64,000 nucleotides of DNA, from sequence record NC_041936.1; one strand, 5' to 3'. The translations under genes were made by a program, and so were the position numbers. Every line of letters begins with the position of its first letter. Position 1 is the first letter of the stretch. The notes under the pieces are model-generated. The model made no database searches. It was given only the letters and a program-made list of their open reading frames with translations, and was not told the DNA's origin. Positions 37,604-60,484 of this stretch are shown one piece after another. Source of the DNA: Escherichia phage ECD7.

Positions 37604-37702
37604 ACATGTAAAAACTACACAAAAGGATATCGCTTCGCGAACTCCTACGGAGTATAACATTTGTGTTACAATATGTAGTGATTAATAATTAACCAAAGAT
37701 AC

Positions 37703-37752
37703 ATTTTCTATGTTCTAAAGATCTTTCTTCGTTTTGATCATAATTTAATCAA
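37703..37752. repeat. intergenic repeat copy C (24-mer at 37713..37736 identical to copy A)
   Basis: Direct sequence comparison. Confidence 0.7.
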
Positions 37753-37804
37753 ACAGTATTAATATTGTGCACATGTAAACTAAAATTATGTTAATAACAG
37801 ATAC

Positions 37805-37829
37805 AAAAAAGCCGCCCCAAAGGACGGCT
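37805..37829 (-). terminator. rho-independent terminator (minus strand)
   Basis: On minus strand GCCGUCC-UUUG-GGGCGGC followed by T6. Confidence 0.6.
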
Positions 37830-37837
37830 AATGTTAA

Positions 37838-38275
37838 TTATTTGTTGATAACGATCTGATTTCGGCGAATGGTAACATTACTCTTAGAGATGATCAGATC
37901 ATCCGGCACTACGTTAGTTTTGTATGGTTGGAAGCGAACAAGCATCTGATTGCGTTTAGACCCTTCCTTAATCTTGATTTCCATCTGGATATTGTTGCCT
38001 ACGTGAGCAACCGCAATTTCACCTTTATTCTCATAGACCCACTTGCTGGTAACGTCTCCAGCAAAAGCCTTAATAACTTGCAATGCTTCGTCGTATGCGG
38101 TAGAGCTGTGAACTTTCAGAAGGCCAGCCGTAGCAAGACGTGAGCAGGTGATCGCCGGAGATTGCCAAACATCAACATTAATTTGCTCAATCAGAGTAAC
38201 ACCGCCCTGATCAACTGCTTTGAATGCTTCGAACATTGCCTTTTTCATTGCTACGTGGTTTTTACGGAATTTCAT
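37838..38275 (-). CDS. hypothetical protein (145 aa)
   Basis: ORF followed by terminator. Confidence 0.55.
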   Translation of the reverse strand: MKFRKNHVAMKKAMFEAFKAVDQGGVTLIEQINVDVWQSPAITCSRLATAGLLKVHSSTAYDEALQVIKAFAGDVTSKWVYENKGEIAVAHVGNNIQMEIKIKEGSKRNQMLVRFQPYKTNVVPDDLIISKSNVTIRRNQIVINK

Positions 38276-38321
38276 AATTAGTCACCTCTATTGATTAGTT
38301 ATTCAGAATATTAATTACAAA

Positions 38322-38597
38322 TCAGGACATTGCCCGTTTGAATGCGTCCATTATAACAGTGTTATTTGGCATGTCAACACGTTTTTGAACTTTATTTTTA
38401 AATTTTTTGTTGATGTGGTGTTTACGATAAACAACCTTTTCACGGTTGGCGTAAGCCTCGCGTGCGTCTTTTACCATCAACCATGCCTTAGCCGCATCTT
38501 GTCCGCTGATCCCGCCAATCTTCTTAGCAATATCAACAAAATTAAGACCGTGGTCTTCGCGTAGCATGTAAACCATTAACGCTGTTTTCTTGTCCAT
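38322..38597 (-). CDS. hypothetical protein, possible helix-turn-helix DNA-binding (91 aa from ATG 38597)
   Basis: Segment LNFVDIAKKIGGISGQDAAKAWLMV resembles an HTH; start overlaps stop of upstream gene (TGATG). Confidence 0.45.
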   Translation of the reverse strand: MDKKTALMVYMLREDHGLNFVDIAKKIGGISGQDAAKAWLMVKDAREAYANREKVVYRKHHINKKFKNKVQKRVDMPNNTVIMDAFKRAMS

Positions 38598-38794
38598 CAC
38601 TTCGCCCCATTGACGATTAACAGGATAGTGATTAGCACCGGAAACTGGATCATGATAGTGCCAATAAACCGGATAAATGCATTTTCTGACTTCCACACAT
38701 GACATGCGACTAGCTGATAGACCATTGTTGAAACCAGAACTAGGATATAAACCGAAAGCGGTGTAACTTCGATTAGTCGGGAAATCTCATTCAT
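38597..38794 (-). CDS. small hydrophobic protein, predicted membrane (65 aa)
   Basis: Two hydrophobic stretches; GAGGTGA SD before ATG 38794. Confidence 0.45.
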   Translation of the reverse strand: MNEISRLIEVTPLSVYILVLVSTMVYQLVACHVWKSENAFIRFIGTIMIQFPVLITILLIVNGAK

Positions 38795-38959
38795 ACTTCA
38801 CCTCATACATTCATAAACACAACAACGAATAATACAGTAACAGTTATCAACGCCATTTTCAACCCCATATTCATAATATGTTCTTCGCCTCACTATGGAC
38901 AGTAGCATGTCGATGCGTGCCATTATAGACATCTAAATCGCTCTGTCAAGCACAAAAAC

Positions 38960-38984
38960 AAAAAAGCCACCCCGAAGGATGGCT
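38960..38984 (-). terminator. rho-independent terminator after hoc (UUCG tetraloop)
   Basis: On minus strand GCCAUCC-UUCG-GGGUGGC followed by T6. Confidence 0.65.
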
Positions 38985-38995
38985 GATAGATTTCA

Positions 38996-40210
38996 TTAAG
39001 CAGGATGCGTTTCACGAATGCGTAGAACTCGCTCTAACGTATCTCGGTCCAGTTTATGTAACTCTTTGGAATGATACATGAAACCATTGCGAGATTCCAT
39101 GCAAGTGCAATCACTATATTTTTCTTCCGCTGCCGCGATTGTCTCCAGATCTTTGGCGTACTTGCTGGTTGAATAAACTTCTCGATCACGCCACTCTAAC
39201 CCAGACTCATTGAATTTAACAATCTCGTCAAATACCCACCATCCAATGTAGATAAATGAAGTTTTGCGCCACGGGATCGGGTGTACGTAACGAAACATTT
39301 TAACAACTTCCATTGAACATTTTCGGCTTGTACTTGCTGCAACTTCTACTGTTTCATCTTCGATCTGTTGATATAGTTTAGCAACACACCAGAATTTGGC
39401 TGTGTCATCGTAAGTAGCACTCTCTTTGAACAGATGACCGTCTGGAGTGATAGAAAATCCTTCCAGTGCTTCGCCGACCTCACTACCGATCAGAGTCGGT
39501 GACATTTGCCCTTCGCGCTGCAAATACCAGTTATATTTGATCGTCAAATTAGGCATACCGCTAGAATCGCCTACAATGTCCTCTGACACAACATAATTAA
39601 GTGATATCTCATTACCTAGTGCCACGGTCTTTGATTCCACCACATCCTGATCTACGTTCATTGTTGCCAGCATTATTTTAGTCGATGCGCTAGCGGCTGA
39701 ATCTTCCGACTCGCCCCACACTTTTACAGTATACACGCCGTTTTTATCTGCTGTAAATTCTTGGATCGTAATATCCTTTTTTGTGTCTATAACGTCATCG
39801 CCCTTACTCCAACTATAATGTAGTTCATAGTTGTCTGCTGGAGTCTTCCCACCAGAAAAATTTACTGTTGCATGTAATTCTACGTCTTTTTGTGATGATA
39901 CGTAGAAATGCTGCGGTTCGGTGATATTTACGATTAATTCAGCTTCTTCCATGAGGAAAACTTCAGATTCTACTGATGTCATCGTATCGGTATCTTGTAC
40001 CGTTACTTTATAGCTACCCGCATTTTCACTTGTTGCGTCTGCTACAGTTAGCGTAGCTGTGCTATTTTCATGCGGTTGGTCGTCTTTTGTCCATGTATAT
40101 GTCAAATTGCTGGGTAATGGTTCGTCACCCGCTACAGTCGCCGTTAAGGTGAAACCATCTCCAGCAAGAAAACATCTTTTGTTAGATTGTATTGATACTG
40201 TGAAAGCCAT
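38996..40210 (-). CDS. hoc: Hoc-like outer capsid decoration protein with Ig-like domains
   Basis: Repeated Ig-like modules (YTWTKDDQ...GSYKVTV; YSWSKGDD...GVYTVKV), ~404 aa; position between 24 and uvsW. Confidence 0.75.
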   Translation of the reverse strand: MAFTVSIQSNKRCFLAGDGFTLTATVAGDEPLPSNLTYTWTKDDQPHENSTATLTVADATSENAGSYKVTVQDTDTMTSVESEVFLMEEAELIVNITEPQHFYVSSQKDVELHATVNFSGGKTPADNYELHYSWSKGDDVIDTKKDITIQEFTADKNGVYTVKVWGESEDSAASASTKIMLATMNVDQDVVESKTVALGNEISLNYVVSEDIVGDSSGMPNLTIKYNWYLQREGQMSPTLIGSEVGEALEGFSITPDGHLFKESATYDDTAKFWCVAKLYQQIEDETVEVAASTSRKCSMEVVKMFRYVHPIPWRKTSFIYIGWWVFDEIVKFNESGLEWRDREVYSTSKYAKDLETIAAAEEKYSDCTCMESRNGFMYHSKELHKLDRDTLERVLRIRETHPA

Positions 40211-40549: not shown

Positions 40550-41275
40550 TTACTTGAGTGTGTGGAATTGGCTATGTTTAGTCTCTCGCACCTTGACAGA
40601 CCCATCGCGTTTGATATAATAGATCAGTGACTTGAGGGTGTCGTGTACATACGCGTGCGGGAAACGCTCTGGATACTTCTTCCAATCTGGAGTATTAACG
40701 ATCCAGTCGAAAATCCACCACGGGCAGGAGTAGTAACCACGACCGCCACCGATCAAGCAAATGGTCGGACGGAAGCCAGTAAGATCGCAAAATGAATCAG
40801 TGTCATTTGCTGGGGAACGATGTTCTGCTTCGTCAGAGAAAATGTTTGCTACCGGAGATTCCACTTTAACTTCCGGTGCTTCTTCAACATCTGACTTAAC
40901 TTCTTCGACCACTGGTTCAACTGCTGGAGATTCTTCTTTTGTTTCTTCAATGACGATCTCAGGTTCTTTCATTGCTTCAACCAGAGACGGGTCAACTTCG
41001 TCGAATACCACTTTATCATCTGCGGTGTCTGCTGCCAGAATAAGATCGTTAATACTGGTTCCTTCTGCCGGAGTTTCTTCTTCCATTTCGGAAGCCAGTT
41101 TAGTTAATTCGGTTTCTACGAACTCGATCATGTTCTCTAGTGATAAAGTCTTTTTGACCTTAATATCAAATTGTTTTGCGTAGTCAGCTAATTCTGTTTT
41201 AGCTGTTTTCTGTGCTTCTTTGTCGTCGGACGCCGCAATAGCGCGGAGTTCTTCGAAATATTCTTTATCAAACAT
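40550..41275 (-). CDS. acidic hypothetical protein, Inh-like by position
   Basis: 241 aa, acidic central region; adjacent to hoc as T4 inh is; no motif support. Confidence 0.4.
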   Translation of the reverse strand: MFDKEYFEELRAIAASDDKEAQKTAKTELADYAKQFDIKVKKTLSLENMIEFVETELTKLASEMEEETPAEGTSINDLILAADTADDKVVFDEVDPSLVEAMKEPEIVIEETKEESPAVEPVVEEVKSDVEEAPEVKVESPVANIFSDEAEHRSPANDTDSFCDLTGFRPTICLIGGGRGYYSCPWWIFDWIVNTPDWKKYPERFPHAYVHDTLKSLIYYIKRDGSVKVRETKHSQFHTLK

Positions 41276-54820: not shown

Positions 54821-54849
54821 ATTATAGGGGATCACCGATCCCTTGTCAA
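54821..54849 (-). promoter_or_regulatory. promoter-leader cassette copy a (TTGACA, 17-nt spacer ggggatcggtgatcccc-like, TATAAT)
   Basis: Minus-strand -35 at 54844..54849, -10 at 54821..54826. Confidence 0.6.
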
Positions 54850-60455: not shown

Positions 60456-60484
60456 ATTATAGGGGATCACCGATCCCCTGTCAA
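60456..60484 (-). promoter_or_regulatory. promoter-leader cassette copy h (consensus TTGACA, 17-nt perfect palindrome ggggatcggtgatcccc, TATAAT)
   Basis: -35 at 60479..60484, -10 at 60456..60461; two GATC sites in spacer. Confidence 0.65.

Follow-up and report, generated by a model that had tools for sequence, protein, structure and literature searches.

We analyzed a window of 64,000 nucleotides (nt) from the genome of Escherichia phage ECD7 (NC_041936.1) and concentrated on a minus-strand region downstream of hoc, at positions 38322 to 38794. This region carries two small open reading frames (ORFs). The upstream one encodes a 65-amino-acid (aa) protein with two predicted transmembrane (TM) segments, assigned to phrog_16558 (38794..38597, with its TGA at 38599-38597), and the downstream one encodes a 91-aa protein of the DUF2774 family, the orthologue of T4 gp24.3 (38597..38322, with its ATG at 38597-38595). 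They are joined by a UGAUG stop-start overlap (38595..38599), in which one base is common to both genes. A program-made list of ORFs instead gives a 127-aa ORF (MSCVEVRK..., 38705..38322), the longest one; over its initial 36 codons it runs through the 65-aa gene in a different frame. Our comparative analysis supports the 65-aa/91-aa pair as the gene model, places both genes in a predicted early transcription unit, and makes the 91-aa protein a putative regulator; taken as a whole, we regard this explanation as quite probable.

Over positions 37800-39100, the window shares 99.8% identity with phage GEC-3S and 98-99% with Phi1 and RB49, and all 57 phage records matching this interval are Krischvirus-type (RB49-like), T4-related coliphages. 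By this comparison, the source phage is a Krischvirus, an RB49/GEC-3S-like T4-type coliphage. To compare the frames, 11 Krischvirus genomes of 91-99.8% identity were aligned to the window and codon changes tallied in each frame; more divergent metagenomic relatives were also compared, at protein identities of 79% (L020), 76% (L016), and 57-63% (L021 and L022, the latter at 63%). Within the 109-nt overlap between the competing models, the 65-aa frame showed 10 synonymous and 5 nonsynonymous distinct codon changes, and 9 of its 15 variable sites fell at codon position 3. Read in the 127-aa frame, the same segment gave 1 synonymous and 15 nonsynonymous changes, with codon position 1 holding 10 of 17 variable sites. 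This substitution pattern indicates that the 65-aa frame is under purifying selection.

The N-terminal extension of the 127-aa ORF is interrupted by stops in five relatives, four of them Krischvirus. In UPWr_E1, vB_Eco_SAP, and Makalu_002, a TGG codon has become TGA four codons ahead of the internal ATG; in SSG23, the initiating ATG is replaced by GTG and followed by TAG at codon 2; and the frame is closed in L020 too. The family itself points to the internal methionine, since all 92 aligned DUF2774 members begin within a few residues of it, and the Pfam and PHROG profiles begin at residues 4-6 of the 91-aa model. The T4-type orthologues in RB14, EcWhh-1, STP4-a, and LAL003 have the same start without any extension, 70-104 nt after hoc. 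We also computed Shine-Dalgarno (SD) duplex energies against the 16S tail, with 1129 minus-strand ATGs as background (mean of -1.5 kcal/mol; 9.5% at or below -5 and 2.7% at or below -7). The SD of the 65-aa start reached -6.9 kcal/mol (GAGGTGA, spacing of 5 nt) and that of the 91-aa start -4.7 kcal/mol (GGGG, 7 nt upstream), versus -2.2 kcal/mol at the ATG of the 127-aa ORF, which thus lacks an SD.

Because the frame-specific substitutions, the stops in the extension, the N terminus of the profiles and of the family, the T4-type starts, and the SD energies all agree, we conclude that the coupled pair is correct and that the 127-aa ORF is refuted, being an artifact of an alternative frame that happens to remain open. 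That the 127-aa ORF should be the real gene, with a spurious or overlapping 65-aa ORF, we find scarcely credible: the former is the longest ORF, it stays open in L016, and a long form is annotated in two public records (375 nt in SSG23 and 384 nt in FL15) and in the metagenomic gene call P0006, against which stand all the comparisons above. In 57 Krischvirus genomes, and in metagenomic relatives that are more divergent, both ORFs of the pair are retained and vary in the manner of coding sequence, which indicates that the arrangement is not a chance feature. The pair is in fact already known: public records of these phages annotate it as standard. It appears as a 198-nt plus a 276-nt gene in RB49, Phi1, GEC-3S, W115, UPWr_E1, SAP, Brandy, JK32, KMB43, and Makalu_002, under names such as RB49p167 and RB49p166 ("gp24.3 conserved hypothetical protein") in RB49 or "putative membrane protein" and "phage T4, Gp24.3 protein" in W115. 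Among the public records compared, only SSG23 and FL15 carry the long ORF. Our analysis upholds the RB49-style model and flags these two long ORFs as annotation errors.

A first-pass annotation of the window, made from the sequence, had already described a hydrophobic 65-aa ORF with a strong SD that ends in TGATG at the start of a 91-aa ORF, and had preferred this pair over the 127-aa ORF on the strength of the SD signals. Its coordinates are right, as is its account of the 36 overlapping N-terminal codons, and the codon pattern, the stops, and the family N terminus come down on the same side as the SD energies. It also placed a helix-turn-helix (HTH)-like segment in the 91-aa protein, which the predicted fold and the family profile matches bear out as a sigma region 4-like HTH. 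As to the extent of the unit, the pair itself stood, but a 23-aa hydrophobic gene, the third small one in the coupled series, had been overlooked, as had the promoters and the terminators.

We then turned to the 91-aa protein, which matches Pfam entry PF11242 (DUF2774) with 101 bits against a gathering cutoff of 29.2 (E = 4.2e-29), positions 3-63 of the 63-position profile aligning to residues 6-68. It also belongs to phrog_1566 (PHROG 1566). By tblastn, DUF2774 occurs in 942 phage records, covering Tequatrovirus, Mosigvirus, Dhakavirus, Gelderlandvirus, Jiaodavirus, Karamvirus, Bragavirus, Roskildevirus, and others. Nine residues conserved in at least 90% of the 92 sequences of our family alignment (E14, F20, I23, A24, E53, V56, Y57, R58, and K59) are all present in the 91-aa protein. 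The near-invariant basic motif REKVVYRK, at positions 52-59, is followed by a basic tail, and the net charge of the protein is +10. Synteny supports orthology as well, the order hoc, 24.3, further genes, and 24 being common to RB14, EcWhh-1, STP4-a, LAL003, and the window.

AlphaFold2 (AF2), run with the family alignment, modeled the 91-aa protein with a mean predicted local distance difference test score (pLDDT) of 85, rising to 95-98 over residues 1-50. The model has helices at residues 3-16, 20-27, and 32-51, then a less ordered basic segment, and finally a C-terminal helix (residues 80-90) that is Krischvirus-type. Residues 3-51 form a sigma region 4-like HTH, the closest folds being overwhelmingly sigma region 4 domains, including structures of such domains bound to anti-sigma factors. 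At the profile level, the family has weak matches to RpoE region 4 (E = 0.012) and to the HTHs of VirB and IstA; the 91-aa protein itself matched neither Sigma70_r4 nor r4_2, nor any Pfam family other than DUF2774, at E values up to 1. A search of PDB chains with its sequence returned only noise (an HD hydrolase, E = 0.026), and a fold search of BFVD returned only uncharacterized family members. We considered a sigma factor and rejected it: the region 4 HTH fold is present, but the 91-aa protein is a single domain that lacks regions 2 and 3, and the absence of region 2 rules out a sigma factor.

Residues 13-45 also gave a weak, repeat-wise match to the TALE-like protein BurrH (HGLNFVDIAKKIGGISGQDAAKAWL, E = 0.05), which is probably a generic helix-hairpin/HTH similarity. 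When we searched the whole library with HMMER, single-domain DUF2774 proteins stood at the top of the 136 matches, and the others that we inspected were long tandem HTH-array proteins. Four metagenomic ones matched by the DUF2774 profile (P0108, P0118, P0123, and P0125) contain 4-9 tandem copies of an HTH unit of ∼55 aa of the HTH_Tnp_1/HTH_23/Sigma70_r4_2 type, and the N terminus of P0108 is hydrophobic.

The two genes belong to a predicted early transcription unit. It is inserted, in the genome of an RB49-like phage, between two late genes (hoc and 24), and all its genes, promoters, and terminators lie on the minus strand. Its order is a terminator, a first promoter (P1), a 23-aa gene, the 65-aa gene, the 91-aa gene (holding a second promoter, P2), a 145-aa gene, and a closing terminator. 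The first terminator, after hoc, is a strong intrinsic one (AGCCATCCTTCGGGGTGGCT followed by a T-run, 38965..38984) with an 8-pair stem that includes 5 G-C pairs; it is kept in all aligned relatives and annotated as a terminator in GEC-3S and Makalu_002. P1 (38922..38949) is a sigma-70-type early promoter of the form TTGACA-16 nt-TATAAT, with 12/12 matches, and would start transcription near position 38915. Both of its hexamers are unchanged in the 11 aligned Krischvirus relatives, in L016, and in L020, and the G at -33 fits the early-promoter consensus of RB49 (PMC1524935). In RB49 and phi1, elements termed PeSL (promoter-early stem-loop) consist of a terminator stem-loop followed by an early promoter, and hoc is named as PeSL-associated (PMC2839356). 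To judge from its layout, the post-hoc terminator together with P1 is a PeSL-type terminator-plus-early-promoter cassette.

P2 (38350..38377) is a second perfect TTGACA-16 nt-TATAAT promoter, with a TG ahead of its -10 box, and lies inside the 3' end of the 91-aa gene, facing the 145-aa gene. It falls in codons of the C-terminal extension of the 91-aa protein, GTTGAC being read as V-D and GTTATAATG as V-I-M. P2 retains 12/12 matches in L016 and L020 and 11/12 in L021 and L022, although the protein identity of these four is no more than 57-79%; the region is under a dual constraint, as protein and as promoter. Transcription from P1 and P2 would take place early in infection, and T4 24.3 has been classed as an early RNA with a middle-class protein in time-resolved omics (PMC9697503 supplements). 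We searched for the late promoter TATAAATA nearby on the minus strand and did not find it. An Rfam scan of positions 37700-39100 gave nothing above noise, the weak matches falling on the terminators.

Perfect promoters of the P1/P2 form number 7 in the 64-kb window versus 0.11 expected, a 60-fold enrichment. Two others on the minus strand, at 54821-54849 and 60456-60484, are perfect TTGACA...TATAAT promoters with a G/C-rich palindrome (GGGATCGGTGATCCC) between the hexamers; in RB49 and phi1, promoters of this kind have been described as a PeSL subclass, to which these two belong. A further perfect sigma-70 promoter, on the plus strand at 40593-40620, lies inside the minus-strand gene inh (40550-41275) and is antisense to it.

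Between P1 and the 65-aa gene, we found an ORF for a 23-aa hydrophobic micropeptide (MNMGLKMALITVTVLFVVVFMNV, 38803..38874), whose stop codon, TGA, is part of the GAGGTGA that serves the 65-aa gene as SD. The 23-aa, 65-aa, and 91-aa genes are tightly packed. The peptide has a grand average of hydropathicity (GRAVY) of 1.89 and an SD of -6.0 kcal/mol. Its frame carries 4 synonymous and no nonsynonymous changes, and the ORF is conserved in L016 and L020; FL15 has a 12-nt in-frame deletion in it, L021 has an analogous hydrophobic ORF of 18 aa, and UPWr_E1, SAP, and SSG23 annotate a 37-aa version in the same frame. We rejected the 44-aa ORF annotated here in GEC-3S (BN201_0171; 38932..38798, minus strand): the 3' part of its frame shows 0 synonymous and 4 nonsynonymous changes, relatives carry frame-breaking indels of 7 nt and 1 nt, and its ATG sits in the P1 spacer, upstream of the -10 box and of the inferred transcription start. 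For the annotation, the gain is that a conserved 23-aa micropeptide takes the place of the 44-aa ORF.

The 65-aa protein has hydrophobic segments at about residues 7-33 and 39-65 (Kyte-Doolittle windows), consistent with the membrane protein of the first-pass annotation. It matched phrog_16558 only (E = 2e-46) and gave no Pfam match at E values up to 1, no PADLOC match, and no meaningful NCBIfam match; the PADLOC and NCBIfam searches likewise gave no meaningful match for any small protein of the unit. By tblastn, it was found only in 57 Krischvirus records, to which close metagenomic relatives add. The N-terminal third (residues 5-22; 38729-38782, minus strand) occurs as two haplotypes, ...SRLIEVTPLSVYILVLVS... 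and ...VRLIKETPIEMYFLALVA..., which differ sharply among genomes that are otherwise 95-99% identical, with SSG23 mixing features of both. The pattern points to either recombination mosaicism or diversifying selection. With low confidence, we would class the 23-aa and 65-aa products as Krischvirus-specific inner-membrane accessory proteins.

Where the 65-aa gene meets the 91-aa gene, each of the 11 Krischvirus relatives has either TGATG or TAATG; L016 has TGATG and L020 has TAATG, and in L021 a 3-nt spacer separates the upstream gene from DUF2774 instead. Ribosomes ending on the 65-aa gene would reinitiate on the 91-aa gene at UGAUG, and this would be the main route to its synthesis; the SD of -4.7 kcal/mol at the 91-aa start is compatible with a dependence on upstream translation. 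From this geometry we infer that the two genes are translationally coupled.

We then surveyed the neighborhood of 47 DUF2774 loci. In most Tevenvirinae, no gene intervenes between hoc (or inh) and 24.3, which begins 70-117 nt further on. Other arrangements include the Proteus phages, where a gene for a soluble, acidic 55-aa protein overlaps the DUF2774 start by 8 nt; L021, where a 61-aa two-TM protein (2312-2497) and an 18-aa peptide lie upstream; L024, a different lineage with rnlB downstream, where a gene for a 63-aa two-TM protein (437-628) overlaps the DUF2774 start by 8 nt; and L031, where a hydrophobic 59-aa ORF (1163-1342) lies 158 nt upstream. In L022, a PeSL-like element directly precedes DUF2774 and both membrane genes are absent, which fits the gain or loss of a cassette. 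We detected no homology among the two-TM proteins of the window, L021, and L024 (hhalign probability below 1%); their dissimilarity could be due to fast divergence or to several insertions at one and the same site.

Downstream, the last gene of the unit encodes a 145-aa protein (37838..38275) and is followed by the strong intrinsic terminator that closes the unit (37810..37829), which has an 8-pair stem with 6 G-C pairs and a T-run and is annotated in GEC-3S. The 145-aa protein is a remote homologue of the product of the gene right after DUF2774 in other Straboviridae, namely Jiaodavirus, Gelderlandvirus, Roskildevirus, Bragavirus, and L024 (hhalign probability of 87.6%, E = 3.5e-6). The homologues, at 1722-2048 in L015, 1731-2087 in L014, 1416-1757 in L025, 1365-1649 in L026, and 902-1246 in L024, have in common with it the motif hVGxxxQxE...RF/I.P. 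T4, Mosigvirus, and Karamvirus have the unrelated 24.2 (...DQRDGxWxEIxF) in place of this family. The predicted fold of the 145-aa protein gave no more than weak winged-helix-like matches. Because of the locus survey and of this homology across genera, we conclude that the cross-genus partner of DUF2774 is the downstream gene and not the membrane protein.

What the 91-aa protein does can be argued from its predicted fold and charge. We propose that it is a small nucleic-acid-binding accessory regulator acting early in infection, a proposal to which we give about even chances. Several observations weigh against our account of the protein and its gene. Its recognition helix has no marked basic character, and the positive charge lies in the tail, so that DNA binding via the HTH is less evident; a protein-protein role as a mimic of sigma region 4 would be equally compatible with the modeled fold; our literature searches on DUF2774 and gp24.3 found no paper and no experiment on any member; coupling is argued from geometry alone, and the 91-aa gene has a weak SD of its own; and at least two other lineages, L021 and L024, also have a two-TM protein directly ahead of DUF2774, so that the pairing could be functional rather than incidental. 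Such a mimic, rather than binding DNA, would contact other proteins; it might, for instance, compete with sigma-70 region 4 for the beta-flap of RNA polymerase or for factors that bind region 4, and in this way modulate host or early transcription. T4-type phages do target region 4 of sigma-70 through AsiA (PMC1524935), and the preponderance of sigma region 4 folds, including anti-sigma complexes, and the few basic residues of the recognition helix fit this idea. The lack of a match to any Pfam sigma region 4 model and, in favor of nucleic acid binding, the invariant basic tail and the net charge of +10 speak against it, and we consider it somewhat unlikely. Very unlikely, in our estimate, is a more elaborate version in which gp24.3 is a free-standing region 4 mimic, made early by T4-type phages, that disturbs sigma-70 region 4 functions such as -35 recognition, beta-flap docking, or the binding of region 4-targeting factors and is coupled by stop-start overlap, in Krischvirus-like and some other lineages, to a small two-TM protein that sequesters or releases it at the membrane; if true, phages would have here, in minimal form, a counterpart of anti-sigma/sigma pairs.

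The same neighbors bear on the first-pass suggestion that the 65-aa and 91-aa proteins form a small regulatory or exclusion module, with the membrane protein tethering or sequestering DUF2774 as an anti-sigma factor would, or both acting jointly in superinfection exclusion, and UGAUG fixing their stoichiometry. In its favor, a stop-start overlap or close abutment is kept in all Krischvirus-like relatives, and two-TM or hydrophobic proteins precede DUF2774 in L021, L024, and L031; no homology is detectable among the two-TM proteins, and the association may therefore have arisen repeatedly and independently. Yet the distribution of the two proteins does not bear the suggestion out: 885 of the 942 DUF2774 phage records match only below 60% identity and lie outside Krischvirus, compared with 57 records for the 65-aa protein; 24.3 directly follows hoc or inh, without a membrane gene, in all sampled Tevenvirinae; in L022, DUF2774 comes with a promoter and an SD of its own, and the membrane genes are missing; the overlapping upstream gene of the Proteus phages encodes a soluble, acidic protein; and the neighbor conserved across genera is the downstream 145-aa family. 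Small hydrophobic ORFans are, moreover, common fillers of the plastic sites of T4-type genomes. PeSL cassettes with ORFans have been described (PMC2839356). We consider such a module unlikely. The membrane genes of the unit look like lineage-specific fillers of a plastic slot, and we read the coupling to DUF2774, tentatively, as cassette packing and not as an obligate partnership. A different role for the 65-aa protein, as a class II-type holin or antiholin, we hold to be highly improbable. Class II-type holins have two transmembrane domains and about 65-95 aa, which the size and the two hydrophobic segments fit, but T4-type phages use the unrelated holin T. We rejected the idea because the promoter ahead of the gene is a sigma-70 early one and no late promoter is near it, the C terminus consists of only four residues (NGAK) with no charged tail, and the Pfam, PADLOC, and NCBIfam searches gave no family match.

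For a T4-type genome, nothing in this locus is surprising, and its components belong to known, though uncharacterized, families. What is gained is that a DUF present in >900 T4-like phage genomes now has a concrete predicted fold and a conserved downstream partner gene, with gp24.3 as a tractable candidate for an early regulator. The corrected 23-aa ORF and the promoter within coding sequence are further by-products of the analysis.

Several features of the unit recall known systems. The 65-aa protein is small, has two predicted TM segments, and is encoded behind an early-type promoter; in these respects it resembles Imm, the two-TM superinfection immunity protein of T-even phages; the likeness is one of architecture only, since the 65-aa protein is restricted to Krischvirus and has no Pfam match at E values up to 1, the superinfection-immunity family included. 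The 91-aa protein has the fold of sigma-70 region 4 (FliA, 1rp3; SigE region 4 with DNA, 2h27), at sequence identities of 8-20%, but unlike it continues into the family-specific basic EKVVYRK tail. The post-hoc cassette is laid out like the PeSL cassettes of RB49 and phi1 (Arbiol et al. 2010, PMC2839356), in which a stem-loop and an early promoter likewise precede small genes annotated without function within a conserved virion module. It differs in that, judging by the sequence, it drives a four-gene unit including the widely conserved 24.3, and not ORFans alone. The closest counterpart is T4 gp24.3, detected as a protein by omics, which occupies the same slot downstream of hoc and has the same E14, F20, I23-A24, and EKVVYRK and early-type expression signals. 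Compared with it, the Krischvirus form is longer (91 aa versus 56-80): it has an additional basic linker and, at the C terminus, a helix encoded by the codons that also hold P2; it is preceded by two membrane-peptide genes and followed by the 145-aa family instead of 24.2.

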